A stretch of 64,000 nt of DNA from Polyangiales bacterium (GTDB lineage: Bacteria > Myxococcota_A > Polyangia > Polyangiales > Polyangiaceae). The position numbers and the translations under genes were made by a program. The DNA is taken from positions 53,681 to 117,680 of the forward strand of contig JBBQWQ010000021.1 of assembly GCA_038210445.1 (NCBI GenBank), in the 5' to 3' direction. Shown here in pieces: positions 20,542-38,571 of this stretch. Each line of letters starts with the position of its first letter. Position 1 is the stretch's first letter. Below the pieces are notes generated by a model. The model was given only the letters and a program-made list of their open reading frames with translations, had not been told where the DNA came from and made no database searches.

Positions 20542-21471
20542 TCAGAAGCGAATGGTCGCGAAGGCCTCGACTTTGCGGGGTCGGCTCGGTGCCAGGAGCA
20601 GCGAAACGATGCCCGAAGCCAGCGTCACCGCCGCGCCAACGACGAACGCGGTGGCGAAGTTGCCGTAGGTGATCGCGCGATCGAGGCGGTCGAGACCGGC
20701 TTGCCTGCACGAGGCTACCCCGCACTCCTCGCGGCGCGCGGTGTCGTTCTCCACCTTCGCCGCCACGCCGAAGGTGATGGCTCCGACGGTGGCGACGCCG
20801 GAGCTGACGAGCAGGCCGATGCCCACGGGAACGAGGATGCTGCGTCGGCCGGAATGCGGCGCAAAACCAGGGGCCTCCGTCGGCGGACGCAGCTCCGGCA
20901 CCCGGACGCGCACCTCGCGCCGCTGCACCTCCACCCGCACGTGCCACGGAGTCGTTCCCGGCGCCTCTGCAGACACCTCGTGGGCACCGGTGTCCACCGG
21001 GAGCCGCATGCCCCAGGCGGCCTTGCCGAGGTCGAGCCCGTCCTGTCGGATCACCATTCCCGACGCCGGGCTGGGTACCTCGATGATCAGGTACGAGAGC
21101 CTGGGCTCAAGCTCGGCGATCTTGCTGGTGGCATGCTCTGCGCGGCGCACTTGGCCCAAGCGTGACGCCAATACCTGCATCTCGTGATAACGCACCCAGG
21201 CGCTGGCAAAGCGTCTCGTCGCCTCATAGCACTCGGCGAGGTTGAAGAGCGTCCCCGGCGCAACATCGAGGCGCGCGCTCTCCGCGAACTTGGGGCAGGC
21301 CTCCGCGGCGCGCCCCTGGTCCATCAGCGCGCGGCCTTCCTGAAAGAGCTGCTCGGCCATGGCCTTGCCGGCGTCCTCGCCGCCAAGGGGTTCGTCGGCC
21401 GACGCACGGCCAGCGAAGAGCATCGAGGTAGCGAGGAAGCACGCGGCGAGATGATGAGAACCGAGGACCAT
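20542..21471 (-). CDS. secreted TPR-like repeat protein with C-terminal TM segment
   Basis: ATG 21471 with a signal peptide (MVLGSHHLAACFLATSMLFAGRASA), helical repeats and a C-terminal hydrophobic segment. It lies 46 bp downstream of the sigma-54 activator on the same strand. Confidence 0.55.
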   Translation of the reverse strand: MVLGSHHLAACFLATSMLFAGRASADEPLGGEDAGKAMAEQLFQEGRALMDQGRAAEACPKFAESARLDVAPGTLFNLAECYEATRRFASAWVRYHEMQVLASRLGQVRRAEHATSKIAELEPRLSYLIIEVPSPASGMVIRQDGLDLGKAAWGMRLPVDTGAHEVSAEAPGTTPWHVRVEVQRREVRVRVPELRPPTEAPGFAPHSGRRSILVPVGIGLLVSSGVATVGAITFGVAAKVENDTARREECGVASCRQAGLDRLDRAITYGNFATAFVVGAAVTLASGIVSLLLAPSRPRKVEAFATIRF

Positions 21472-21517
21472 GGGGTCGGCCCTCAGCCTACCACCAGGCC
21501 TCGCGCTGCGTCGTCGT

Positions 21518-22834
21518 TCAGCGCAGAGGCGGAATACCGTGCTTGGCCTTGAGCCGATGAAAGTAGCGCCGCGCGATGCCGGACGCGCCGGCGGCCCTCG
21601 ACACGTTCCCACCGTGCACCGCGAGGATCTTGAGCAGATACCGGCGGTCGAACTCTTCGCCGAGGAGCGTGCGCGCTTGTACCAGCGGCAGATCGGCGGC
21701 CAGGAGCCGCTCGGCGATCTCGCCGATCTTCGCCTTGGCATCGTCGCGAAAGGTGGCCTCCGGGTCCACCGCATCGCTGCCGGTGGTGGCGAGCTTCACC
21801 ACCGTGCGCTGCAGCTCGCGCACGTTGCCCGGCCACCGGTAGAACTCGAAGCGACGGAGCGTCATCGGCGAAAGTACCGCGTCGCCCACGTCGAGCCCTC
21901 GCCAGAAGAAGTCGGCGAGGAGCTTGAGATCGCCCTCGCGCACCCGCAGCGGAGGCAGCTCCACCCGCGCTCGCGCAAGGATGCCGGCCAGACCCTCGAG
22001 CACGCGTCCACGCTCCACGTCGAGGTCGAGATCGCGTCGCGAGCTGCCGACCAGGCGCACGTCGAAGGTGGGGAGCACCACCCGGTCGGCGCGCTCCACC
22101 GGCCTGCGCTCCAGGAACGCCAACAAGCGCTCCTGCGACTCGCGCGGCAGATCGCCGAGGTCCTTCAGCAGCAGTGTGCCGCCGTCGGCCCGTTCCAGCT
22201 GGCCCGGCGATCCCTTGGTGCCGAAGAGCCGTGCGTCGACGTCGGGCTCGGTGGCGTCGCAAACCACGAAGGGCCCGTCGGGTCGTGGACCTTGCTCGTG
22301 AAGGACCTCCGCCAAGAGCTCCTTACCGGTGCCGGCCTCGCCCTCCACCAGCGCCGGCGCGCGCGAGGCGGCCAGCTGCGCCAGCAACGGATACAGCCGA
22401 CGCATCACCGGGCTGCCGCCGAGGACCCGTCCGAAGCTTCCCTGCTTGCCGAGCCCGCTGCCGTCGGGTGTGTCGCTCACCGCCTCGGCCATGAGCACCG
22501 TGCCACCGATGCGAATCTGCGCGCTCTCGTTCATCTCGGCCTGGAACACCCGAAGCCCCGACACCACGACGCCGTTGGTGGACTCGAGATCGTCGATGCG
22601 AAGCGCGCCGCCCGAGACCGTGGCGGCGAAGTGCCGACGCGATACCGAGCGATCGCGGAGGCGCAGCGCGCAGGCCTCGCTCGTGCCCACCAGGTAGCGC
22701 GTCTCGGGTCCCACCACCAGGAGCGAAGCTCCGGCATCGGGGCCCGAGATCACGTGAAGCTTGAAGGCGACGTCGCCGATGCCCTTGCGTCGCGGCAGCG
22801 ATTCGGTTCCCGGGTCGTGCTTGGGCTCCGCCAT
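21518..22834 (-). CDS. sigma-54-dependent transcriptional activator with N-terminal FHA domain
   Basis: ATG 22834. FHA domain (YLVGTSEACALRLRDRSVSRRHF...STNG). Sigma-54 AAA+ domain (GEAGTGKELLA, GAFTGA-like region, ESELFGH-type GTLLLKDLGDL). C-terminal HTH. Confidence 0.85.
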   Translation of the reverse strand: MAEPKHDPGTESLPRRKGIGDVAFKLHVISGPDAGASLLVVGPETRYLVGTSEACALRLRDRSVSRRHFAATVSGGALRIDDLESTNGVVVSGLRVFQAEMNESAQIRIGGTVLMAEAVSDTPDGSGLGKQGSFGRVLGGSPVMRRLYPLLAQLAASRAPALVEGEAGTGKELLAEVLHEQGPRPDGPFVVCDATEPDVDARLFGTKGSPGQLERADGGTLLLKDLGDLPRESQERLLAFLERRPVERADRVVLPTFDVRLVGSSRRDLDLDVERGRVLEGLAGILARARVELPPLRVREGDLKLLADFFWRGLDVGDAVLSPMTLRRFEFYRWPGNVRELQRTVVKLATTGSDAVDPEATFRDDAKAKIGEIAERLLAADLPLVQARTLLGEEFDRRYLLKILAVHGGNVSRAAGASGIARRYFHRLKAKHGIPPLR

Positions 22835-22921
22835 AACGCTTCGAGGAGAGCGCGACCCGAGGGATATTGCAATGGGACGTGGCGGCGCCGGCGAAGTGAT
22901 AGCCTTTGCTGGCGCGCCGTG

Positions 22922-24379
22922 ATGCCTGCTCAATCCGACGATAGCTCGACCCGCGAAGGCGGCACTCTGCCCGGCGGCGCCGTGGCCGCGGTGGGCGAGC
23001 GCGTGGGTCGCTACCGGCTGTTCCGCCCCATCGCCTCGGGAGGTATGGGCACCGTGTACCTGGGCTGGCTCGAGAGCGACGGCGGCGTGACGCGTCCCAT
23101 CGCCGCCAAGGTGATGCACGCGCAGGGGCCCGCGGCGGAGCGATTGACGCCCATGGCCCTCACCGAGGCGCGCATCGCGTCGCGCATCCGGCACCCCAAC
23201 GTGGTGAGCCTCACCGACGTGGTGACCGGCGTTCGAGGCCCGGTGCTCATCCTCGAGTACGTCGCCGGCGATTCGCTCTCGCACCTGCTCGAGGCGAGCT
23301 CCCATGCGGTCCCCTGGCCGGTGGTGGTGCGCGTCATGGTCGACGTGCTCGAAGGGCTCCACGCGGCGCACGAGGCCACCAACGAGAGCGGGTTGCCACT
23401 CTCGGTAGTGCACCGCGACGTCTCGCCCCACAACGTGCTCGTCGACGAAGCGGGCATAGCGAAGATCGCCGACTTCGGCGTCGCCAAGGCCCTGGAGCGC
23501 GCTTACACGACGGAGTCCGGCGAGGTGCGCGGCAAGCTGGCCTACATGGCGCCGGAGCAGCTCGACGGAAAGGTGGTCGATCGCCGGGCCGACGTGTGGG
23601 GCGCCGGCATGGTGCTCTGGCAGATGCTGGCGGGCACCCGCCCCTTCGCCGGCCTCGACGTGGGCCCAACCATGAAGCGCATCGCGACCGGCGCGGTGGA
23701 CGATCCGACCACCGTACGCGATTGTCCGGAGGCCCTCGCCCGGGTGTGCTTGCGCGCCGTCTCCACCGATCTCGACGCGCGCTACGCGACCGCTCGCCTC
23801 ATGGCCATCGATCTGGAGCGGGCGCTGGCGCCCGCCTCGCACCGGGACGTCGGTCGCTGGGTGAAGCGAACTGCCGGCAGCGAGCTGGCCGCACGGGCCG
23901 CGCTGGTGAAGGAGATGGAGAGCCTGGCGCTTCGCGAGCGGAGCGGCGCGGTGCCACGACCCGCCGTGCAAGCTCCCGCGTCAGCGGCGCCGTGGGCATC
24001 GACTATCAGCGTCGGTACGGGCCGGGCTCGTCCGCTCGCGCTCCGCTGGGCGATGCTGGGCACGGGGCTCCTGGCGATCGCTGCAAGCGTGGCGGTGGCC
24101 GCGCGCGGGATGCGTTCTTACGACCCCGGTACGCCCTCGGCGGCAGCCTCGTCCGCGAGCTCGCCGGCAGGCCCAACGGCGCACGCCGCACCCACGTCGC
24201 AACCGGAGCGCCCCGCGCCGCCGGACCCGGGTTTGCGTGCGGGGGTCGTCCCCTCCACGCGGCCAACGTCGCGTACCTGGCCGCCGCGGGTGACGCCCAC
24301 CGCATCGGCCACTGCGACAGCATCGGCCACGCCGGCTCCCACCGCCGCCGATACCCTCGGACGCAACCAGCGTAACTGA
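22922..24379 (+). CDS. Ser/Thr protein kinase with TM segment and Pro/Ala-rich C-terminal tail
   Basis: Hanks kinase motifs (GGMGTVYLG, AAKV, HRDVSPHNVL, DFG, APE). The N-terminal 480 codons of the listed 969-aa ORF are antisense to the activator gene and are rejected. Confidence 0.85.
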   Translation: MPAQSDDSSTREGGTLPGGAVAAVGERVGRYRLFRPIASGGMGTVYLGWLESDGGVTRPIAAKVMHAQGPAAERLTPMALTEARIASRIRHPNVVSLTDVVTGVRGPVLILEYVAGDSLSHLLEASSHAVPWPVVVRVMVDVLEGLHAAHEATNESGLPLSVVHRDVSPHNVLVDEAGIAKIADFGVAKALERAYTTESGEVRGKLAYMAPEQLDGKVVDRRADVWGAGMVLWQMLAGTRPFAGLDVGPTMKRIATGAVDDPTTVRDCPEALARVCLRAVSTDLDARYATARLMAIDLERALAPASHRDVGRWVKRTAGSELAARAALVKEMESLALRERSGAVPRPAVQAPASAAPWASTISVGTGRARPLALRWAMLGTGLLAIAASVAVAARGMRSYDPGTPSAAASSASSPAGPTAHAAPTSQPERPAPPDPGLRAGVVPSTRPTSRTWPPRVTPTASATATASATPAPTAADTLGRNQRN

Positions 24380-26629: not shown

Positions 26630-27082
26630 GTGATCCCCCGACTGCAGAGCGCCGCGACCCTTCTCGCCCTCGCCACCACCGCTGCGCCCGATATCCTCTC
26701 CTGGGGCCGCCTCAAGGAGACCCTCCGCGACACGGTTGACGCAGACCCCATGGACGCGGCGCTCGGCTTCATCGGCACCGCATCGCTCCTCTTCTACGTG
26801 GCCGAGAAGGGGGAGAACCCCAAGGTCGAGACCCTGGGCGATGCCTTCGTGTTCATCTCCACCTGCATGTCTGTGGGCTACTCCGACATCTTCGCGCGCA
26901 CCGAGGCCGGCAAGGCGGTCGCGACGCTGGTCATGACCTACGGCCCCGCGCTCAGCGCCAACATCCTGCGCAAGGGGCCGGAAGATACGCGCATCGTCCA
27001 GCGGCTCGACAAGCTCATCGAAGCGCTCACCCCTGCCAGCGCAAGCGCCGGCGCCGACGGCACCGTCCCCGGCTCCCGCTGA
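26630..27082 (+). CDS. two-TM pore-loop cation channel (KcsA-like fold) with variant GYS selectivity filter
   Basis: 150 aa with TM1, a pore helix, the filter CMSVGYSD and TM2 (a TVGYGD-like signature with Gly replaced by Ser). Confidence 0.6.
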   Translation: MIPRLQSAATLLALATTAAPDILSWGRLKETLRDTVDADPMDAALGFIGTASLLFYVAEKGENPKVETLGDAFVFISTCMSVGYSDIFARTEAGKAVATLVMTYGPALSANILRKGPEDTRIVQRLDKLIEALTPASASAGADGTVPGSR

Positions 27083-27861
27083 TGGCCGGCCTCCTCGCTC
27101 TGCTCGTGGGCTATCCGGCGGTGGTGTACACCGTGGCCCTCGGCGTGGTGCTCGTCTACTGGTTGTTCGTGGTGCTGGGCGCCGTGCACATCGACACCAG
27201 CCACGCCGACGGCGCGCTCGAGGGCGCCCTCGACGGCGGCGACGTGGGTGACGTGGGCGGCGGCCACCATGGCGACGTGGGCGGCGATCATGGCGGCGGC
27301 GACGTGGGCGACGCAGGCGACGGCGACGCGGGTGGCGATCATGCCGGCGAAGGCGATACGCCCGGCGGGTCGGTCAACATGTTGGCCGCGCTCAAGCTCC
27401 GCTCGGTGCCGGCCACGGTGAGCCTCAGCTTCATCATTCTGTTCGCCTGGATCATCGCCGTCATGGGGATGAACTGGGCGAGTCACGCATTCCCCGGCCT
27501 CTCCACCGCGCTGCTGGGCACCGCCATTCTCCTCCTGGCGCCCCTGCTGGCGCTCCCGCTCACGTCGCTTGCCATCCGTCCGCTGGCGCCGCTCTTCAAG
27601 CACCGCACGGCGACCCGGCAAAAGGAGCTGGTGGGAAAGATCTGCGTGGTGCGCACCGGCACCGTCGACGACACCTTCGGCGAAGCCACCCTCGAAGACG
27701 GCGGCGCTGGGCTGGTGGTGCGCGTGCGCATCGACGCCGGCGAAACACTGAAGCGCGGCGAGCAGGCGGTCATCGTGGGGTTCGACGAGGAGAAAGACGC
27801 CTTCCTGGTGGCGCCCATGTCGGCGGCCGAGCTCGATCCGCCGCCGCGGGCGCGCAAGTAA
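27082..27861 (+). CDS. NfeD/YqiJ-like membrane protein with C-terminal OB-fold and His/Asp/Gly-rich linker
   Basis: The start overlaps the channel stop (TGATG). N-terminal TM segment, a (GDVG/GDHGG)n linker, further TM segments and an NfeD-type OB-fold (GKICVVRTGTVDDTFGEATLEDGGAGLVVRVRI...GEQAVIVGFDEEKDAFLVAP). Confidence 0.6.
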   Translation: MAGLLALLVGYPAVVYTVALGVVLVYWLFVVLGAVHIDTSHADGALEGALDGGDVGDVGGGHHGDVGGDHGGGDVGDAGDGDAGGDHAGEGDTPGGSVNMLAALKLRSVPATVSLSFIILFAWIIAVMGMNWASHAFPGLSTALLGTAILLLAPLLALPLTSLAIRPLAPLFKHRTATRQKELVGKICVVRTGTVDDTFGEATLEDGGAGLVVRVRIDAGETLKRGEQAVIVGFDEEKDAFLVAPMSAAELDPPPRARK

Positions 27862-27869
27862 CCGGGACT

Positions 27870-28832
27870 TCAGCGCGGGGGCGGCGGCAAATCGCGGCAG
27901 GCGGTACCGAACTTGTCGATGGCCTCCTTGAGGCTCTTCGAGAGATCGCCGTCGCAGATGCTGCTGAACACCGCGTTCTTGCCGGTTGCGGTGACGAAGT
28001 CGCCGAGGCGCTTGGCCTCGGCCGCGGAGCCGAACGTCGAGGTGCAGCTGGACTTGCCCGCGATCACCGCGGTGGCCCAGCGCGCGCGATCGCCGGTGAG
28101 CCCGTCGAGCATGGCCACGAAGTCCTGGGGCTTCTCCGCGCCTTTGAGGTCGCTGCACACGTCGCCAAAGCCTTCGTCGAGGTCTTTGGCGGCGTAAGAG
28201 CAGTCGTCTTCGTCGGTGAGGAAGACGATGGCGAGGAGCGCATCTTTGCGCAGGAAGCCGGCGTTGGTGCCGTCGGCGACGCGATCGGTGAGCGCCATCT
28301 TCATGCACTGGAGCGGCATCTCCTCGGAGGGGCCGTCGGTGCCCACGGTGGCCCGGCAACCGAACGACGCCGCAGCCTCGCCGCGGTCGAGCCAGCGCTT
28401 GGCGCCGCCGCAGTTGTTTCGGAACGCGCCGTCGTCGCCCTTCACGTCGTCTACCGTGATGCCGAAAGGCCCCTTGAGCTTGTACGACTTGCCGGTGGTG
28501 GTGACGGCGACGCGGTAGTCGAGCGGACCATTGGGGCCGCGGGTGGCGTCGAGGACGCTCACGAACTTGGGAAAGTTGGCGGCGAGGTTGGTCTGCTCCT
28601 CGGACATGCTGCCCGAGTTGTCGACCACGAACAGGATGTCCATCTTGTTGCACCCAGCGCCGCTATCACTGCCGCCGCCGCCGCCGTCGCCGGTGGGAAA
28701 GTCGAGGCCGTTCCCGCGCGCATCGCCGCCCGCATCGGCGCCGTCCTCGAACGTTGCGGTACCCGCGGCGCCGCAGGCCACCGAGACGACCGCGAGAGAG
28801 GCGAAGAGAGCAAGACCGAGGACGCGCTTCAT
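27870..28832 (-). CDS. von Willebrand factor A (VWA) domain lipoprotein
   Basis: ATG 28832 with a lipoprotein signal (MKRVLGLALFASLAVVSVACG). MIDAS motif ILFVVDNSGSMS. Confidence 0.75.
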   Translation of the reverse strand: MKRVLGLALFASLAVVSVACGAAGTATFEDGADAGGDARGNGLDFPTGDGGGGGSDSGAGCNKMDILFVVDNSGSMSEEQTNLAANFPKFVSVLDATRGPNGPLDYRVAVTTTGKSYKLKGPFGITVDDVKGDDGAFRNNCGGAKRWLDRGEAAASFGCRATVGTDGPSEEMPLQCMKMALTDRVADGTNAGFLRKDALLAIVFLTDEDDCSYAAKDLDEGFGDVCSDLKGAEKPQDFVAMLDGLTGDRARWATAVIAGKSSCTSTFGSAAEAKRLGDFVTATGKNAVFSSICDGDLSKSLKEAIDKFGTACRDLPPPPR

Positions 28833-28943
28833 GGCGGGAGTTTGCGAGGAAGGCCCTGCGATCGCCACCTGCATTTGGCAACCCAGCGCCTATTTTTATG
28901 GCGTTCGGTGCGCTTTCCCGAGCGCACCGAGGGTCGCGCGCGC

Positions 28944-29815: not shown

Positions 29816-30655
29816 CTATTCGTCGACGATGACCGCGTCTCGCACCCCCGCCGCCGCGAGCAGGCCTTCCACGAGCCTGCGCAGCTTCTCGGGGTCGGTC
29901 GTCGCGACGTGGACGTCGACCCGCCCTTCGCCTGCGCCCGCGCTGATGATCTCGCCGAGCCCGCTCGCGCCGATCTTGTCCTCGAGCGCGTGCCTCGCGC
30001 GGAGCTCGCCGCTCGTGGGCAGCTCTGCGCCAGCGATGGAATACTGGATATGGACCTGCTTGCGCGAGCGCTTGCGCGGCCACTTCGCGAGCACCTCGCG
30101 GGTGCGCACGCGCGACCGATCCTCCAGGTCGACCAGCTCTGCTTCGGAGAAGTCCTTCCGCCAGCGGGCGTGGCGCGGATAGGGCGGCACGGTGTGCCCG
30201 GGAAGCAAGCGCTTGTCGATGTGCTTGGGGTCGCCGTAGTGGTCCCAGGGAAAGATTCCCCAGTAGCACTCGAGCTCCCCCTGCGTCATGAATCCCGTCG
30301 AGGAGGCGCCGTTCAACCCGAACGGGGTGAGATGACGGGCCACGTCGAAATTGTCGTACGAACGAAACGGACGATGACCCACCGCGTGCCATGCGCCATA
30401 CCGGATCATGTCATCGGTCGGCGATACGACCATCATCGGTGACGTCGGATCCGTGATGAGGTCGACCGCGAGGGACAGCACCGCCCCCGGTTCGAGCCTG
30501 CATGCGAAGAACGCGACGGCGATCTGCGCGATCGATCCCGATCGGTCGAGCTCGATCGCGCCGGCCAGCTGTCCGAGCGCGGCGCTGCCGTCGAGCAACG
30601 GCACCGCGAGGATGGTGCCGACAGGGGGAAGGCTGGTCTTGCGAGTTTTCGTCAT
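29816..30655 (-). CDS. hypothetical cytoplasmic protein (279 aa)
   Basis: Diverse composition with no signal peptide or TM segment. No family recognised. Confidence 0.45.
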   Translation of the reverse strand: MTKTRKTSLPPVGTILAVPLLDGSAALGQLAGAIELDRSGSIAQIAVAFFACRLEPGAVLSLAVDLITDPTSPMMVVSPTDDMIRYGAWHAVGHRPFRSYDNFDVARHLTPFGLNGASSTGFMTQGELECYWGIFPWDHYGDPKHIDKRLLPGHTVPPYPRHARWRKDFSEAELVDLEDRSRVRTREVLAKWPRKRSRKQVHIQYSIAGAELPTSGELRARHALEDKIGASGLGEIISAGAGEGRVDVHVATTDPEKLRRLVEGLLAAAGVRDAVIVDE

Positions 30656-30997
30656 TTGGGGACGCAGCCACCTGCGTTTGCGTAGTTGGTGTCACTCATC
30701 TCGTGGCGAGCATTTTCCAGGCGCCCGCCCAGGGTGGCTCGGGCGGGTCGGCCAGTGCATGGTAGAGCGATATTTCTGCATGCTGCCACACGACGGTGAT
30801 CGTGCGGATGCCCGCGAGCTTTCGCAAGGCGACGTTCTGCCCGCAGTCCCGATAGGACCGCTCGGGCTCCGGCTCGCGTTTTTCCGGTGCCGCGCGCCAG
30901 CGCCTGCCAGGAAGTTGGCTCCTTTCGCCCAGCTCCGTACGCTTTGCGCTGCGCAGAATGAGGGCGAATCCTCGGAGTGCGCACCTGGAGTCGACAC

Positions 30998-33004
30998 ATG
31001 GCGGAGAATCTTCCCCTTCTCATCATCCTCATCGTCATCGCGGTGCTCATCGTGTTCGGCACGCTGATCATGGTGGCGAGGTTCTATCGGCAGGTAGACC
31101 AAGGCCGCGCCCTCATCGTGAACACGATGCGCTCGGAGCCGGTCGTCACCTTCACCGGTGCGGTGGTTTACCCCATCGTCAACCGCGCCGAGCTCATGGA
31201 CATGTCGGTGAAGATGGTCGAGATCGACCGCCGCGGAAAGGAGGGGCTCATCTGCAAAGACAATATCCGCGCAGACATCAACGTGAGCTTCTTCATCCGC
31301 GTGAACAAGACCCAGGAAGACGTCCTCAAGGTGGCGCAATCGGTGGGCTGCGCCCGCGCCTCCGACGCGGTAGCCCTGCGCGAGCTCTTCAGCGCCAAGT
31401 TCTCCGAAGCCCTGAAGACCGTGGGCAAGCACTTCAACTTCGAAGACCTTTACAAGATGCGCGAAGAGTTCAAAGACCAGATCATCAAGGTCATCGGTCG
31501 CGACCTCAACGGCTTCATCCTCGACGACGCCGCCATCGACTTTCTCGAGCAGACGCCGCTCTCGTCGCTCGACCCCAACAACATCATGGACGCCGACGGT
31601 ATCCGCAAGATCACCGATCTCACGGTGATTCAGAACGTGCAGACCAACGAGCTCCGGCAAAAGGAGCGCATGGAGATCGGCAGCCAGAACCTCACCGCCG
31701 ACGAAGCGGTGTTCCGCTTCGAGCAGCGCCGGGCCGAGGCCGAGGCCAAGAAGGAACGCGAGATCGCCGTCGCCAAGACGCGCGAGCAGAACGAGGCCCA
31801 GCGCATCGCCTCCGACGAGCACAAGAAGACGCTCCTGGTGCAGCACAAAAACGACGAGGAATCGAGCATCGCCGACCAGGCGCGGGCACGCGGCATCGCG
31901 GTGGCCGAGAAGAACCGCGAGCGGGAAATCGCCGTAGAAACCGAGCGCGTCGAGAAGGCGCGGCAGCTCGAGGTCATCAACCGCGAGCGCGAAGTCACCC
32001 TCGGTACCATCGCCAAGGAGAAGGAAGTCGAGCTCCAGAAGAAGGAGATCGCCGACGCCATCCGCGCCCGTATCGCCGTCGACAAGACCGTCGCCACCGA
32101 GGAAGAGGCCATCAAGGATCTGCGCGCCAACTCCCAGGCCACCCGCGAGAAGGACGTTATTCGCATCGCCGCCGAGGCCGAGGCCCAGGGCTCGCTCGTC
32201 AAGCAGATCAAGGCCGCCGAGGCCAGCGAAGAGGCCGCCAAGTTCAAGGCCCGGGAGAAGATCGTCACCGCCGACGCCGAGCTCGACACCGCCGACAAGG
32301 TGGCGCGCGCGAAGATTCGCCTGGCCGAGGGCAAGCCGGCCGAGGCCGCCGCCGAGGGCCTGGCCAACGTGAAGGTGCGCGAAGCCGACGCCGTCGCCAC
32401 CGAGAAGCAGGGTCGCGCCGCCGCCAACGTGGTGCGCGAGAAGCTCCTGGCCGAAGCAGCAGGCGACGAGCAAAAGGGCCTCTCTGCAGCCCGGGTGAAG
32501 GAAGCGGAAGCCGCCGCCATCGAGAAGCGCGGCGCCGCCGACGCCTCCGCCACCCGGCAAAAGCTCTTGGCAGAAGCTGCGGGCATCGCCGAGAAGGCCT
32601 CGGCCATGAAGGCCCTCGACGAGGCCGGTCGCGGCCACGAAGAGTTCCGACTCCGGCTCGACAAAGAGAAGGTGGTGGAGCTCGAGTCCATCAGGAACCG
32701 GAAAGACATCGCCACCGCCCAGGCCGAGGTCATGAAAGAAGCCTTCAGCCACGCCAAGATCAACATCGTGGGCGGCGACGGGCAGTTCTTCGATCGCTTC
32801 ATCAAGGCCGTCTCGGTGGGTCAATCCATCGAGGGCGTCATGGACCACAGCGAGACCGTGCGCACGCTCGCGCAAGACGTGCTGGGCAAGGCCTCGGGCG
32901 ATCCCGCCATCGCCGGCCTGCTCTCGCAGTTCATGAGCCGGGCCGACGACGCCCAGAAGGCGCGCCTGCAGCAGCTTCTGAGCGCCGGCACGCCTACCAA
33001 GTAA
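30998..33004 (+). CDS. flotillin-like SPFH/Band-7 family protein (YqiK-like)
   Basis: ATG 30998 with an N-terminal TM segment (LPLLIILIVIAVLIVFGTLIMV), an SPFH domain and a long Ala/Glu/Lys-rich coiled-coil (EA repeats) typical of flotillins. The stop lies 5 nt upstream of the next start. Confidence 0.85.
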   Translation: MAENLPLLIILIVIAVLIVFGTLIMVARFYRQVDQGRALIVNTMRSEPVVTFTGAVVYPIVNRAELMDMSVKMVEIDRRGKEGLICKDNIRADINVSFFIRVNKTQEDVLKVAQSVGCARASDAVALRELFSAKFSEALKTVGKHFNFEDLYKMREEFKDQIIKVIGRDLNGFILDDAAIDFLEQTPLSSLDPNNIMDADGIRKITDLTVIQNVQTNELRQKERMEIGSQNLTADEAVFRFEQRRAEAEAKKEREIAVAKTREQNEAQRIASDEHKKTLLVQHKNDEESSIADQARARGIAVAEKNREREIAVETERVEKARQLEVINREREVTLGTIAKEKEVELQKKEIADAIRARIAVDKTVATEEEAIKDLRANSQATREKDVIRIAAEAEAQGSLVKQIKAAEASEEAAKFKAREKIVTADAELDTADKVARAKIRLAEGKPAEAAAEGLANVKVREADAVATEKQGRAAANVVREKLLAEAAGDEQKGLSAARVKEAEAAAIEKRGAADASATRQKLLAEAAGIAEKASAMKALDEAGRGHEEFRLRLDKEKVVELESIRNRKDIATAQAEVMKEAFSHAKINIVGGDGQFFDRFIKAVSVGQSIEGVMDHSETVRTLAQDVLGKASGDPAIAGLLSQFMSRADDAQKARLQQLLSAGTPTK

Positions 33005-33009
33005 CGTAA

Positions 33010-36000
33010 ATGACGGACCAGCCCAAGGAGACGCTCGAGGGCGGCAACTACGAGATCATTCGTAGGCGCCTTCTGGAGCAAGCGGCGGAGATTGGCACCA
33101 AGGCCGAGGCGCTGAACCAGAAGCGCAAGACGGTGTTCGGGGGCACCGAGCTCGGCCTGGTCGCCAACGAGCGGGCCCGCACCGAGAACAACTGCATTCC
33201 CCGCGACATGGTCAGCGTCGCAGGGCACTTGCTGTTCGGCTTCGAGGTCTTCATGGGCCTCAAGGAAGAGGTGAAGGTCTCCGACGTTCTCACCTTCCAT
33301 CGCTTCGGCAAAACGGCCGAGGGTTACGAGATCGCCGAGGTCCCGCCCGAGGCTCCCGCCCCTGGCGCGACCGGCGAGCGGCCCCTCGCCTTCCTCGCCG
33401 ACGCGACCTTCGTGAAGGAGTTCAAAGACGTCTTTCGCTACATGAAAGATGCCCGGCTCTCGCAGCTGCGGCGCACCGAGACGCGCCTGTTGTGCAGCGT
33501 GCAAGTCGGCGCCAGCGTGAAAGACGTAAAGGTCTTCCGCTGGGCCATCGACGCCAAAGGCGGCGTCTCGTACATGGATGCCCGCGGCGACGAGGACTAC
33601 GCGCCGCCGCGATCGCACGACTTTGCCTGGACCGCGACCGGTCGCGAGAACCAGGTGGCCGGCAAGTTCCCCCATATCTCGGTACTCAACGAGGTATTCG
33701 TCGAGACCCTGGGTGGCGATCTCACCATCAAGGTGGAGAACAACACCAAGGAGGGTCAGGGCATTTACCGCGAGCCGGTCGACGACCCCAACCAGACGCT
33801 CGACGACGCCGACATCGCCTACGCCAAGGTCGGCTCACTCATCCTGCTCAAGATTCGGCCCTTCCGCGAACAGGCCTATCGATACCTCGTGTATGATACA
33901 CGCAACAAGCGAGTCACCCGCATCGATGCCATCGGCCGGGCCTGCCTCGGTCTTCCCGAAGGGCACGGAATCGTGTTCCCGGGCGGCGTGTACCTCGACA
34001 GCGGCGAGCGCAAGGTGTTCGAGGGCGACGTCGCCGACATGGAGTTCGAGCGGGTCATTCCCTCGCCCAATGGCGAAGACGTGGCGTACGTGTTCTACCG
34101 CCACCACGACGGCCAGTACGTCATCATGCCGTACAACCTCATCCGCAAAGAGGCCGACTCGCCCATGCGGTGCAACGGCTACAGCCTCTTTCCCGATGGC
34201 ACGCTCGCCATCTTTCGCGCCTCGGCCGAGGCCACGCGCATTCACCCCATTCAGGTGTGGCGCACGCCCTTTACCACCGCCGAGTTCGCCGCCGGCGCCA
34301 AGACCGACGGCTCCTACCTGGCCAAGGTCGGCAATGCCGACTTGGTGCGCGGCATCAGCGACGCGCTGGCCCTCCGGCGCCTGGCCAGCAAGGAAGACCC
34401 TTCACGCCAGACCTACGAAGACGTGGTGCGCGGCATCGGTCGCCTCATCGACGCCTACTACTGGCTCGGCAACGACGAGGCCGGCAACCTGCTCGCCACG
34501 CTGCAGACGCTGAAGAAGACCTCCGAGCTCATCATCGACGAGTTCGAGAAGCTGGCCGAGATTCGCAAGCGCGCCGCCGAGCAAACCGCCAAATCGGAGG
34601 CCGCCCTCGCGGAGCTCGAGAAGCGCCTGGCGCCAGACGGCCTCGGAAGCATCGACGCATTCCTGGGCGCGCTCACCGATCTCCGGCGCTTTCGCGGCGA
34701 GCTGGTGACGCTGCGCGAGCTTCGCGGGGTGGAGCCCCCACGCATCGACGCGCTAGAAGGCAAGGCGGTGGCGCTCTTCGACGCCGTCAGCGCAGCCTGC
34801 GTGAAGTTCCTTTTGGCGCGCGACGCCTTCGCCGACCTGGTCACGCGCCTCGACGGCAGCATCGTGGCCATCGAGAAGGTGGTAAAAGCCAGCGAGCTGC
34901 TGCCCTTCGAGAAGGATCTCGACACGGTGCAGACCGGCCTCACCCTGCTGGGCGACGTGGTCTCTGCGCTGGCCATCGACGACGTCACCGAGCGCACCAA
35001 GATCCTCGAAGGTGTCAGCGCGGCTTTCGCCCAACTCAATCGCGCGCGCGCCACCTTCCAGGCGCGCAAGAAGGAGCTCTCCTCCAAAGAGGGCAAGGCC
35101 GAGTTCGGTGTACAGTTCAGGCTCTTCGGCCAGGCGGTCGCCGGCGCCCTCGCGGTGTGCGACACCCCCGAGCGCTGCGATCAGGAGCTCTCCAAGCTGC
35201 TCCTCTCGCTCGAGGAGCTCGAGGGAAAGTTCGCCCAGTTCGACGAGTTTGCGCTGGAGCTGGCCGACAAGCGCCAGGAAGTGCAAGACGCTGTCTCTGC
35301 CCGCCGCCAGCTCCTCACCGACGAGCGCCAGAAGCGCGCCGGCAACCTGGCGCAGGCCGCCGACCGCGTACTGGCCGGAGTGGTGCGGCGCGCGCAAACC
35401 TTCGCGACCCAAGACGACCTGAATGCCTACTTCGCCTCCGACCCCAGCATCCAGAAGGTGCAGGAGCTGCAGAAGGAGCTGGGGCGCATGGGCGACACCG
35501 TGCGCGCCGACGAGATCGCCTCGCGGCTCAAATCGGCGCGGCAAGACTCACAGCGGGCGCTCCGCGACAAGACCGATCTCTTCGCCGAAGGTGCCATTCG
35601 CTTCGGCGCGCACCGTTTTAGCGTGAACACCCAGCCCATGGAGCTGACGCTCATTCCCCGCGAGGGGACCATGATGCTGCACCTCACGGGCACGGACTTC
35701 TACGAGACCCTAGACGACGCCGAGCTCGCTGCAGCCAAAGATCTGTGGGAGCAAGCGTTGCCCTCGGAGTCGCCCGCCGTGTACCGTGGCGAGTTCCTGG
35801 CGACGCAGATCTTCGCCGCCGCCGAGACCAAGCGCCAAGGGCTCACCTTCGAGGCGCTCAAGCTCGCCGGCACCAAGACCGACGGCCTCCTCGACGCCGT
35901 GCGCGAATTCGCCCGTGACCGCATCGACGAGGGCTACGAGCGCGGCGTTCACGACTTCGACGCATCGCTGGTTTTGGAGCGACTGCTCTCGCTCCGCGAA

Positions 36001-38571
36001 ACCGTCGGGCTCCTGCGCTTTTCGCCCGACGCCCGGGCCCAGGCCACGCTCCACTGGCTCGCGCTGGCCGAAGCCGAGCAAATAGGCCTTCGGCGCAAGG
36101 CCCGCGCCGCCGTGCGCATCCGCGAGGAGCTGGGCGACAGCGACCATCTCGTGCATCTTACAGGTACCCTGGGCGAGGCCATGGCTGGCCGAACCGCCGG
36201 AAGCGCGCTGGCGATGATCCCGGCCGCCGCCCGCGCCGCCTCTGAATACCTGATTCTGGAGCTTTCGCGCGAGCCCTTGCGCTTCACCACCACCCGCGAA
36301 GCGGTGGAGCTGGTGGGCGCCCTTCGCCGCGAGCTTACCGCCCTTGGGAGCCAGCGCGAGGTAGAGGCCGATCTCGACGCACTCGGCCCCCACGAGGCCC
36401 TGCCCATCGCCCGCGCCTACCTCGAAGGCTTTTTGAAGAAGCCCGAGCGCGCTGCCCTGCGCCCCTTTTTGCTGGAGGCCGCCGTGGCGTGGACCACCGA
36501 GGGCAGGCTCGACCGCGACGAGAGCGCGGCGGTCACGCGGGTTCAGGTCACAGGCCTTCTGGGTCGTCACGCGCGCATCGAGGACCGCAAGCTCGAGGTC
36601 TCGCTCGACGAGCTCTTGCCCCGGGTCGATGCCTTCATCAGCGAGCAACTGCCGCGCTTTCGCGCCTACCGCAAGCTTCGCACCGAGATTCTCGAGCGCG
36701 AGAAGGCCCGACTGCGCATCACCGAGTTCGCGCCGCGGGTGCTCACCTCGTTCGTGCGCAATCGCCTCATCGACGAGGTGTACTTGCCACTCATCGGCGC
36801 CAACCTGGCCAAGCAGATTGGCGACGTCTCCGAGAAGAAGCGCACCGACTTGATGGGCATGCTCCTGCTCATCTCACCGCCCGGGTACGGCAAGACCACG
36901 CTCATGGAGTACGTGGCTTCGAAGCTCGGCCTGGTGTTCATGAAGGTGAACGGCCCGGCCCTGGGCCACGACGTCACCTCGCTCGATCCGGCGGAGGCCA
37001 AGAACGCCACCGCGCGCCAGGAGGTGGAGAAGATCAGCCTCGCCCTGGAGATGGGCAACAACGTGATGCTGTATCTAGACGATATTCAGCACACCAGCGC
37101 CGAGCTCCTGCAAAAGTTCATTTCCCTGTGCGACGCCCAGCGGCGCATCGAGGGCGTGTGGAAGGGCAAGACCCGCACCTACGATCTTCGCGGCAAGAAA
37201 TTCTGCATCGTCATGGCCGGCAATCCGTATACCGAGTCGGGCGAGCGATTCCGCATTCCCGACATGCTGGCCAACCGCGCCGACACCTACAACCTGGGCG
37301 ATATTCTCGGCGGCAAGGAAGACATCTTCGCGCTCTCCTACCTGGAGAACGCCCTCACCTCGAGCTCCATCCTGGCGCCGCTGGCTGGCCGCGAGCCAAA
37401 AGACGTGCACAAGCTCATTCGCCTGGCGCAAGGCGAGGAAGTGCCGCTCACCGATCTCTCGCACGGGTATTCGGGCGCCGAGGTAGAGGACTTTACCGCG
37501 GTGTTCCAGCGGCTCTTCACCGTGCAGACCACCCTGCTCCAGGTGAATCGCGAGTACATCGCCTCGGCCTCGCAAGACGACAGCTACCGCACCGAGCCAC
37601 CCTTCAAGCTACAGGGCAGCTACCGCAACATGAACAAACTGGCCGAGAAAGTGGTGCCGGCCATGAACCAGGAAGAGCTCCTGCGGCTCATCGACGATCA
37701 CTACAAGGGCGAATCGCAGACGCTGACCACCAGCGCCGAGCAGAACGTGCTCAAGCTCGCCGAGATGCGCGGGCGCATCGCCCCCGAGCAGCAGCAGCGC
37801 TGGAAGGCCATCAAGGAAGAGTTCCTGCGCAAGAAGCGCATGGGCGGCAAAGACGACGATCCCGTGGCCCGCGTCACCGGCACCCTGAGCGGCCTCGATT
37901 CGCAGCTCCAGGGCATTGGCGAGACCCTCAAGCGCGGCCTGGGCGACGAAGCGCGCACCCCCGACTGGGGCGGCCTCCTCGACAAGGTGCAGGCTACACT
38001 CTCTCGCATGCAGGCCCCGCGGGTAGACCTTCATCTGGAGAGCGGCGGCGCAGCCGAGCTCACCGCGGTGGTGGCCGAGCATACTGCGCTTCTTTCGCAG
38101 GTCATCACCGCCTTGGCCAAGGGGCCCAGTCAAGTTCCGCAAGCGGGCGGCGGCGGGCACGAAGTGGCGGCGCGCATCGAAGATCTGGCGCGCATCCTCG
38201 AGCGCATGGAGCAAAAGCTCCGGGCCCCATCGGGCAGTAGCCTTTCCTACGAGGTCGCCCTCGACGCCGGCAGCCCCAGCAACTTCTTCCGCGGCTTCGA
38301 GGGCAACGACGTCATCGCCCACGGCGGCCTCTTCGTGGCCACCTACGAAAGGCTGCCGCCCCTGGGCGCCCGCGCCACCGCGCGCCTCGCCTTCCCCGGC
38401 GGCGCCAACTGCGACGTGGAGGGCACCGTGCTCTTCCGTCAGGATCTGGTCGACGACGAAGGCGCCAGCCTGGTGCCCGGCTTCGGACTTCGCATCGAGA
38501 ACGTCACCACCGATGGCGCCGCGCTCATCGCCGTATTCGCCCGCCAGCGCGAGCCCATGGTGCGCGAGTAG
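33010..38571 (+). CDS. giant (1853 aa) multidomain protein: N-terminal globular region, ~700-aa coiled-coil, single MoxR-like AAA+ ATPase module, C-terminal PilZ-like beta-barrel
   Basis: Uninterrupted ORF with high GC3 throughout. Walker A ISPPGYGKTT (about aa 1290, nt 36880-36900), Walker B VMLYLDDIQ, and a MoxR/AAA_5-like segment AGNPYTESGERFRIPDMLANRADTY. The C-terminal PilZ-like pattern is NDVIAHGGLFV...EGTVLFRQ...PGFGLRIENV...ALIAVF. Confidence 0.8.
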   Translation: MTDQPKETLEGGNYEIIRRRLLEQAAEIGTKAEALNQKRKTVFGGTELGLVANERARTENNCIPRDMVSVAGHLLFGFEVFMGLKEEVKVSDVLTFHRFGKTAEGYEIAEVPPEAPAPGATGERPLAFLADATFVKEFKDVFRYMKDARLSQLRRTETRLLCSVQVGASVKDVKVFRWAIDAKGGVSYMDARGDEDYAPPRSHDFAWTATGRENQVAGKFPHISVLNEVFVETLGGDLTIKVENNTKEGQGIYREPVDDPNQTLDDADIAYAKVGSLILLKIRPFREQAYRYLVYDTRNKRVTRIDAIGRACLGLPEGHGIVFPGGVYLDSGERKVFEGDVADMEFERVIPSPNGEDVAYVFYRHHDGQYVIMPYNLIRKEADSPMRCNGYSLFPDGTLAIFRASAEATRIHPIQVWRTPFTTAEFAAGAKTDGSYLAKVGNADLVRGISDALALRRLASKEDPSRQTYEDVVRGIGRLIDAYYWLGNDEAGNLLATLQTLKKTSELIIDEFEKLAEIRKRAAEQTAKSEAALAELEKRLAPDGLGSIDAFLGALTDLRRFRGELVTLRELRGVEPPRIDALEGKAVALFDAVSAACVKFLLARDAFADLVTRLDGSIVAIEKVVKASELLPFEKDLDTVQTGLTLLGDVVSALAIDDVTERTKILEGVSAAFAQLNRARATFQARKKELSSKEGKAEFGVQFRLFGQAVAGALAVCDTPERCDQELSKLLLSLEELEGKFAQFDEFALELADKRQEVQDAVSARRQLLTDERQKRAGNLAQAADRVLAGVVRRAQTFATQDDLNAYFASDPSIQKVQELQKELGRMGDTVRADEIASRLKSARQDSQRALRDKTDLFAEGAIRFGAHRFSVNTQPMELTLIPREGTMMLHLTGTDFYETLDDAELAAAKDLWEQALPSESPAVYRGEFLATQIFAAAETKRQGLTFEALKLAGTKTDGLLDAVREFARDRIDEGYERGVHDFDASLVLERLLSLRETVGLLRFSPDARAQATLHWLALAEAEQIGLRRKARAAVRIREELGDSDHLVHLTGTLGEAMAGRTAGSALAMIPAAARAASEYLILELSREPLRFTTTREAVELVGALRRELTALGSQREVEADLDALGPHEALPIARAYLEGFLKKPERAALRPFLLEAAVAWTTEGRLDRDESAAVTRVQVTGLLGRHARIEDRKLEVSLDELLPRVDAFISEQLPRFRAYRKLRTEILEREKARLRITEFAPRVLTSFVRNRLIDEVYLPLIGANLAKQIGDVSEKKRTDLMGMLLLISPPGYGKTTLMEYVASKLGLVFMKVNGPALGHDVTSLDPAEAKNATARQEVEKISLALEMGNNVMLYLDDIQHTSAELLQKFISLCDAQRRIEGVWKGKTRTYDLRGKKFCIVMAGNPYTESGERFRIPDMLANRADTYNLGDILGGKEDIFALSYLENALTSSSILAPLAGREPKDVHKLIRLAQGEEVPLTDLSHGYSGAEVEDFTAVFQRLFTVQTTLLQVNREYIASASQDDSYRTEPPFKLQGSYRNMNKLAEKVVPAMNQEELLRLIDDHYKGESQTLTTSAEQNVLKLAEMRGRIAPEQQQRWKAIKEEFLRKKRMGGKDDDPVARVTGTLSGLDSQLQGIGETLKRGLGDEARTPDWGGLLDKVQATLSRMQAPRVDLHLESGGAAELTAVVAEHTALLSQVITALAKGPSQVPQAGGGGHEVAARIEDLARILERMEQKLRAPSGSSLSYEVALDAGSPSNFFRGFEGNDVIAHGGLFVATYERLPPLGARATARLAFPGGANCDVEGTVLFRQDLVDDEGASLVPGFGLRIENVTTDGAALIAVFARQREPMVRE

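Follow-up and report, generated by a model that had tools for sequence, protein, structure and literature searches.

The central finding of this study concerns a giant gene (33010-38571, forward strand) in a 64,000-nucleotide stretch of DNA from a Polyangiales bacterium (NCBI GenBank assembly GCA_038210445.1, contig JBBQWQ010000021.1, positions 53,681 to 117,680), which as a whole is called the window below. Judged by its sequence, the encoded protein is typical of an already catalogued family with the architecture DUF3686 + DUF7902 + AAA, and its gene belongs to a conserved module that also comprises genes for a NfeD/YqiJ-like membrane protein and a YqiK-type flotillin. The best overall explanation, which joins this identity to a probable role as a cytoplasmic AAA+ remodeler acting with flotillin assemblies, is given a probability of roughly 0.6. 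An earlier sequence-only reading had flagged positions 36850-37340 (residues 1281-1444 of the giant protein) as a single MoxR/AAA_5-like ATPase module buried in that protein, and this region forms the nucleotide-binding core of a single, complete AAA+ module. We have high confidence in what is said below about the identity of the gene and of its family.

Results

A single complete AAA+ module with invariant motifs

The open reading frame (ORF) of the giant gene has a coding-type G+C content at third codon positions (GC3 = 0.87), in a window whose G+C content is 64-71%. A Pfam scan of the protein identifies four domains—DUF3686, DUF7902, AAA, and AAA_5—and a hydropathy scan predicts no membrane helix. 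While the AAA match (residues 1285-1361) uses only the first half of its profile, the AAA_5 match (residues 1285-1408) runs over profile positions 2-125 of 139 and scores 28 bits against a 22-bit threshold. The claim that the 1853 residues hold a single P-loop was borne out, since regular-expression scans return one G.GK[ST] and one hhhhD[DE] motif, and Pfam, NCBIfam, and PDB profile searches agree on one nucleoside triphosphatase (NTPase) domain. The best profile match falls in neither the ABC nor the SMC class and no additional cryptic P-loop came to light; the other "GKT" strings lie at residue 100, in a poorly conserved loop, and at residue 1386, in the pre-sensor-1 hairpin. Because a loose Walker A pattern alone is expected in 12% of shuffled sequences, the AAA+ call rests on profile, conservation, and fold.

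The motifs quoted in the sequence-only reading all lie inside the flagged interval: GYGKTT at 36883-36900 (residues 1292-1297), VMLYLDDIQ at 37063-37089 (residues 1352-1360), and NPYTESGERFRIPDMLANRADTY at 37222-37290. We assessed their conservation in three alignments, one of which comprises 139 sequences made non-redundant at 80% identity. S-P-P-G-Y-G-K-T of the Walker A motif is invariant in all three alignments, and the second Thr of SPPGYGKTT is invariant in one and at least 90% conserved in another. The Walker B motif shows the proposed hhhhDD pattern (VMLYLDD), and its residues D1357, D1358, Q1360, and H1361 are invariant in all alignments. In the segment that runs from sensor 1 to the arginine finger, none of the three alignments shows any variation at N1405, P1406, G1411, F1414, P1417, L1420, or R1423, while D1425 never varies in two of them and reaches at least 90% conservation in the other. 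Finally, Q-G-S-Y-R of the sensor-2 motif (1535-1539) is invariant in three alignments and L1534 in two. The arginine finger and sensor 2, which the sequence-only reading had suggested looking for, are present as the invariant residues R1423 and R1539. The Asp-Asp pair of Walker B (37078-37083, forward strand) occurs in every family member examined, and the string L-D-D-I-Q-H recalls I-D-E-I-H-R of RuvB.

An AlphaFold2 model of residues 1225-1650, built from a 70-sequence alignment with a predicted local distance difference test (pLDDT) score of 86.6, displays a canonical β5-1-4-3-2-type core followed by a helical lid. In this model, antiparallel strands 1379-1384 and 1387-1392 form a pre-sensor-1 β-hairpin directly before β4, sensor-1 residue N1405 comes after β4, and arginine-finger residue R1423 is at the end of a helix directly before β5, with strand 1425-1428 next. 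These positions suggest the catalytic roles that we give to N1405, R1423, and R1539. The core is where it had been placed, at residues ~1270-1450, but the module itself extends to ~1640 and includes the lid with sensor-2 R1539.

As the catalytic and inter-subunit motifs are all invariant, the module is probably an active, ring-forming ATPase. A different possibility, that of a degenerate, non-hydrolyzing AAA+ domain serving as a nucleotide-binding or oligomerization scaffold in a structural coiled-coil protein, appears rather unlikely to us. It would account for a Walker B that carries Asp-Asp rather than the catalytic Asp-Glu in every member, and for the long helical regions that dominate the giant protein. 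However, the P-loop Lys and Thr, the sensor-1 Asn, the arginine finger, and the sensor-2 Arg never vary, and the AAA+ module is the best-conserved part of the protein, which is the pattern expected from selection for catalysis. Moreover, there are P-loop NTPases in which an Asp can serve as catalytic base.

A catalogued family of constant architecture

More than 3400 database proteins match the giant protein at E ≤1e-5. The matches listed are 1800-1980 residues long, share the Pfam domains of the giant protein, belong to Labilithrix, Sorangium, and Chondromyces (55-60% identity), and bear the NCBI name "DNA repair ATPase"; one relative (P0001) is 97% identical, and the AAA+ module is 99% identical in a contig (L034) of a Polyangiaceae metagenome-assembled genome (MAG). 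A search with the module (residues 1200-1660) against 1.8 billion cluster representatives gave 951 matches, 398 of them at E ≤1e-30. Among full-length matches the module occupies residues ~1170-1260 to 1600-1680, that is, the C terminus of proteins of 1600-1800 residues, and family members overall have 1600-1950 residues; the module is never a stand-alone protein of 250-500 residues. A search with P0266, a distant member with 46% identity in the AAA+ module, brings up proteins of ~1600-1650 residues with the same architecture from Streptomyces, Nonomuraea, and Burkholderiales, the Streptomyces relatives showing 34-38% full-length identity to that member, a value that refers to P0266 and not to the window protein. 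Relatives occur in Myxococcota, Streptomyces, Planctomycetota, and further groups.

This distribution changes the picture of the module's surroundings. The embedding had been called unusual, but the same architecture is invariant across the large catalogued family, and the giant protein resembles other DUF3686-DUF7902-AAA proteins in domain order, length class, and motifs. Nor is the module buried, as it is C-terminal in the core family and is followed by a PilZ-like tail in only about one-third of sampled relatives. The 700-residue coiled-coil proposed upstream is in fact a 480-residue β-rich DUF3686 domain—seemingly propeller-like, with helices on both flanks—plus ~740 residues that are probably helical and hold DUF7902 along with further conserved segments. 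This middle region (residues ~500-1225), moderately conserved, owes its predicted helicity to a composition rich in Ala, Leu, Glu, and Arg with little Pro or Gly, and the profile of conservation and composition indicates long helical stretches over most of the protein. The N-terminal and middle regions found no match in PDB sequence and profile searches. Likewise, the 400-residue C-terminal region resolves into ~200 residues of AAA+ lid and helical extension and a ~200-residue PilZ-like extension.

The PilZ-like tail sets the giant protein apart from the core DUF3686 family and, on sequence grounds, is a lineage-specific addition. Locus-level counts here and below refer to the best 80 related loci, among which 26 have this ~200-residue C-terminal extension. 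Although Pfam PilZ does not match the giant protein's own tail, the tail is homologous (E 1e-17 to 4e-33) to those of relatives that carry Pfam PilZ (PF07238). No canonical D/NxSxxG motif is obvious in it; the sequence reads NDVIAHGG, with a possible RxxxR (RILER) upstream.

The flotillin partner and the conserved gene module

The second finding is that the giant gene is coupled to a flotillin gene, whose stop codon is separated from the ATG of the giant gene by a 5-nucleotide spacer. The partner has an N-terminal transmembrane helix (residues 5-27), an SPFH α/β-domain, a long coiled-coil rich in Ala, Glu, and Lys, and a further domain at the C terminus. Its family alignment matches Escherichia coli YqiK with an hhalign probability of 99.8% (E 3e-29, 401 columns), and its relatives are labeled YqiK, flotillin, or SPFH in their sources, some of them carrying Pfam Band_7. 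The partner itself has no Pfam (Band_7 not even at E 10), NCBIfam, or PDB-profile match. An overlapping ORF of 683 residues (30958-33009, forward strand) was rejected, being an alternative frame rich in arginine of the kind that high-GC DNA commonly yields; the true frame starts at 30998.

In 61 of the 80 loci a homologue of the partner precedes the giant gene, and in 52 of these the gap is less than ~500 nucleotides. The loci concerned are labeled Myxococcota, Planctomycetota, Holophagales, Eremiobacterota, and Burkholderiales. Streptomyces, whose partner protein shows 51% identity, has the same arrangement, as do two metagenomic contigs, one of them with a Band_7 match. The partner is better conserved between Polyangiaceae and Streptomyces than the ATPase appears to be, the ATPase comparison being an indirect one that goes through P0266.

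The third gene of the module codes for a membrane protein of 240-270 residues with an OB-like C terminus; in 42 of the 61 loci it immediately precedes the flotillin gene. The corresponding protein in the window has no Pfam match; its position, topology, OB-like C terminus, and one weak YqiJ match (E 4e-4, to related locus L068) point to an NfeD/YqiJ assignment. Outside these three genes, neighbors vary among loci and are of housekeeping rather than defense type.

Placement among AAA+ clades

The sequence-only reading called the module MoxR/AAA_5-like, and part of that label stands. CbbQ scored 17.0 in the fold comparison (238 of 267 residues aligned at 3.1 Å), followed by NorQ (16.8), midasin (14.6), dyneins (12.9-14.2), ClpA (12.8), McrB (12.2), and RuvB (10.8), and the best TM-scores in Foldseek (0.53-0.60) also belong to NorQ and CbbQ. 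Pfam AAA_5, AAA, and RuvB_N each match all 37 modules scanned from diverse loci. AAA_5 alone covers nearly its whole profile (positions 2-126 of 139, 28-31 bits against a threshold of 22, exceeded in all 37). AAA scores 31-34 bits against 21.2, and RuvB_N remains below its threshold. Two features that mark the MoxR clade are present as well: the pre-sensor-1 hairpin, and an arginine finger directly N-terminal to core strand 5, which has been given as a criterion for this clade (PMC7159879).

Other observations count against the MoxR part of the label. AAA_3, the Pfam model for MoxR proper, matches 0 of the 37 modules. A β-hairpin inserted in helix 2 is the defining feature of the MoxR/AAA_5 clade (PMC7159879), but the β2-α2 segment of the giant protein (residues 1315-1332) consists of 18 residues that form short helical turns and, as far as a single AlphaFold2 model can show, no hairpin, with P1316, G1319, S1324, D1326, and P1327 invariant. 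A conserved partner with a von Willebrand factor A (vWA) domain and its metal ion-dependent adhesion site (MIDAS), another hallmark of MoxR proteins as defined in PMC7159879, was not found in Pfam-annotated neighborhoods. In addition, the P-loop surroundings are RuvB-like or classic-AAA-like in sequence: PDB sequence and profile searches reach the P-loop half only (Rpt3, Rix7, VAT, and RuvB), and the family profile aligns to PDB entries only over the α0-to-β2 region, to the classic AAA proteins Rpt3, Rix7, and VAT. Comparison of the AAA+ alignment with single E. coli RavA, YehL, FtsH, and RuvB sequences by hhalign covers 22-83 P-loop columns and does not discriminate between clades. The label MoxR/AAA_5-like describes the structure fairly, yet the module does not fall cleanly into that clade. 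Our reading is that the module would represent a separate AAA+ lineage inside the pre-sensor-1-hairpin group, structurally nearest to the CbbQ/NorQ branch of MoxR.

The resemblance to RuvB bears on a different view of the protein, as a DNA repair or recombination ATPase acting as a RuvB-like motor on DNA. That view takes support from the names "DNA repair ATPase" and "ATPase involved in DNA repair" used by NCBI and Pfam, from the likeness of the P-loop surroundings and Walker B to those of RuvB (LDDIQH and IDEIHR, respectively), from the RuvB_N matches in every module, from an hhalign probability of 95.6% over 44 columns of E. coli RuvB, and from the top Foldseek rank of RuvB by E-value (3.7e-7), which comes with a poor TM-score (0.34). 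Membership in the RuvB/HCLR clade was nevertheless rejected, RuvB_N being below threshold and RuvB not being closest in structure, and no DNA-related domain (Pfam, NCBIfam), DNA-related neighbor, or supporting literature was found for a role in DNA repair. The membrane-protein context speaks against this role, as do the invariance of the catalytic motifs and the lack of any domain of DNA-binding, effector, or vWA type; the same points count against the biological-conflict role considered next. We regard a DNA repair function as very improbable and the family name as probably misleading.

The MoxR-like fold would also be compatible with an anti-phage or biological-conflict NTPase, that is, a MoxR-type thresholding chaperone as in the MoxR-vWA ternary systems of multicellular bacteria. 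The family is, moreover, prominent in Myxococcota, Streptomyces, and Planctomycetota, lineages in which such systems are enriched (PMC7159879). However, a defense-system assignment was rejected after PADLOC returned P-loop-level noise only (IetA and mad8, E at least 0.002). No conserved vWA, effector, protease, or nuclease partner accompanies the gene, and what lies beyond the three-gene module differs from locus to locus and is of housekeeping type. The flotillin partner, 51% identical across phyla, is also unusually conserved, which fits a vertically inherited cellular function. A conflict role thus seems quite unlikely, and the explanation that we favor remains an AAA+ motor for flotillin assemblies.

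Neighboring genes

The features discussed in this study are collected in Table 1. Two genes on the opposite strand separate the NfeD-like gene from the flotillin gene in the window. The first, encoding the vWA-like lipoprotein, recurs in two related loci only, L034 (the near-identical MAG) and, with a weak match, L059, and because of this limited occurrence the opposite-strand pair seems to have entered the module recently. The vWA-like lipoprotein was considered as a MoxR partner and rejected, as its vWA match is sub-threshold, the protein is apparently secreted, and the gene is on the opposite strand and confined to those two loci.

Upstream, a gene for a 150-residue protein with a Pfam Ion_trans_2 (K+ channel pore-like) match (26630-27082, forward strand) overlaps the NfeD-like gene through a TGATG stop/start. 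Homologues of this small channel-like gene stand beside the NfeD-like gene in ~10 related loci (labeled Polyangiaceae, Labilithrix, or Kofleriaceae), in either orientation. Farther away are genes for a 973-residue Ser/Thr protein kinase (21458-24379, forward strand) and for a peroxidase-domain protein (PF00141; 47098-49446, reverse strand), neither of which is conserved beside the module elsewhere. Homologues of PspA, YjfJ, and YjfI were sought by tblastn with E. coli queries, a search of low sensitivity, and none were detected in the window or in 84 related loci.

Table 1. Features of the giant gene and its surroundings (coordinates are positions in the window)
Feature	Position	Strand	Details
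Putative NfeD/YqiJ-like membrane protein	27082-27861	+	259 aa; transmembrane segments and C-terminal OB-like region
Probable lipoprotein, vWA-like	27870-28874	-	Sub-threshold vWA match, E 0.0014
291-aa protein	29816-30691	-	Very weak Imm26 match
YqiK-type flotillin partner	30998-33004	+	668 aa; directly upstream of the giant gene
Giant gene	33010-38571	+	1853-aa ORF; DUF3686/"DNA repair ATPase" family
DUF3686 (PF12458), N-terminal	33094-34461	+	Residues 29-484; E 2e-183; 610 bits, cut-off 25
DUF7902 (PF25472)	34822-35076	+	Residues 605-689; E 9.5e-20; 71 bits, cut-off 26
Complete AAA+ module	36757-37929	+	Residues ~1250-1640; α/β core and helical lid
Walker A/P-loop, SPPGYGKTT	36874-36900	+	Residues 1289-1297; Ser replaces the usual first Gly
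Walker B, VMLYLDDIQH	37063-37092	+	Residues 1352-1361; Asp-Asp, not Asp-Glu
Pre-sensor-1 β-hairpin, RIEGVWKGKTRTYD	37144-37185	+	Residues 1379-1392; AlphaFold2 model
Sensor-1 to arginine-finger segment, NPYTESGERFRIPDMLANRADTY	37222-37290	+	Residues 1405-1427
Sensor-2 motif, LQGSYRN	37609-37629	+	Residues 1534-1540; R1539 opens a lid helix
PilZ-like domain	38248-38532	+	Residues 1747-1841; NCBIfam TIGR02266, E 5e-9, below cut-off

Discussion

It is an open question in the field by what means bacteria assemble flotillin and other SPFH scaffolds, turn them over, and couple them to clients. A large, strongly conserved AAA+ ATPase whose gene is linked to those of a YqiK-type flotillin and an NfeD-like protein, as seen in Myxococcota, Actinomycetota, Planctomycetota, Acidobacteriota, and other groups, is an obvious candidate for the missing energy-consuming component, and it is this link to flotillin that makes the family worth experimental work. 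The mechanism that we envisage, and to which we give somewhat less than even odds, is that an AAA+ ring is recruited to flotillin and remodels it at the expense of ATP. The giant protein, being soluble, would oligomerize via its AAA+ ring, and the β-propeller-like and helical N-terminal regions would dock it onto the cytoplasmic flotillin assembly. ATP hydrolysis could then assemble, disassemble, or remodel the flotillin scaffold or a client that is held there, much as in known combinations of an SPFH protein and an AAA+ machine, HflK/C and FtsH among them. Regulation might enter through the extra PilZ-like tail in Polyangiaceae. The mechano-chemical or scaffold function suggested by the sequence-only reading would be plausible.

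Several points weigh against an ATPase that remodels flotillin. The functional link between the two proteins has conserved gene order as its sole basis, and this order is broken in some Sorangium and Labilithrix loci (L010, L013, L015, and L001-L004), where unrelated genes, in part on the opposite strand, fill 4-6 kb between the flotillin and ATPase genes; the two genes have thus ceased to be strict neighbors on more than one occasion. In the window itself, the opposite-strand pair has shifted the NfeD-like gene 3.1 kb upstream. Since structural matches to the DUF3686 N-domain are weak, the docking role that we give to this domain is a guess. The Asp-Asp Walker B, for its part, may mean that hydrolysis is slow, regulated, or switch-like. 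Finally, the literature searched contained no paper on the DUF3686 (PF12458) family and no experiment on any member.

A more ambitious version of the flotillin motor can be considered, although we find it doubtful. The giant protein would then be a dedicated, ATP-driven machine for the assembly or dismantling of flotillin cages, whose N-domain recognizes flotillin and whose PilZ-like tail confers cyclic di-GMP-type control in Polyangiaceae. By analogy, and just as tentatively, such a machine might be the bacterial counterpart, for SPFH scaffolds, of Vps4 acting on ESCRT-III or of NSF acting on SNAREs.

Comparison with known systems

At the level of the AAA+ module, CbbQ/NorQ, midasin, and dynein AAA offer the closest structural comparisons, but the module of the giant protein differs from them in not being a stand-alone protein of 250-300 residues and in having no vWA/MIDAS partner. 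It further differs in its Asp-Asp Walker B, in the absence of a modeled helix-2 hairpin, and in the RuvB- or classic-AAA-like character of its P-loop half, and sequence identity is only 16-18%.

At the level of gene order, a 2024 mSystems comparative-genomics study of the phage shock protein (PSP) system described "Betapropeller+Coiled-coil+AAA-ATPase" proteins in flotillin operons together with a YqiJ/YuaF-type membrane protein (PMC11237479). Those operons sometimes include CesT/Tir-PspA, and abbreviated versions without PspA are widespread (PMC11237479). The window resembles them in gene order and, apparently, in the architecture of the ATPase, with an adjacent gene for a flotillin that combines a transmembrane helix, SPFH domain, and coiled-coil. 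It departs from the full operon in that neither PspA nor CesT/Tir was detected in the window or related loci by the low-sensitivity tblastn search, which fits the abbreviated class, and in that its NfeD-like gene is displaced by two inserted genes. Architecture and gene order, rather than sequence, are what lead us to equate the giant protein tentatively with the Dokdonia example of that study. Pairing of NfeD and SPFH genes in operons, YqiJ-YqiK included, is documented too (PMC2636767). The family, its architecture, and apparently the same type of operon are thus already catalogued, and the window adds a typical member rather than a new principle.

The pairing of an SPFH protein with an AAA+ machine has a parallel in HflK/C-FtsH, work on which is cited in PMC11188069 and PMC13220708. 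Going by the gene order in the window and by that work, both cases would combine an SPFH oligomer anchored in the membrane with a genetically linked AAA+ machine. Unlike FtsH, however, the giant ATPase is predicted to be soluble and lacks a protease domain; it also falls in another AAA+ clade and has ~3 times the size.

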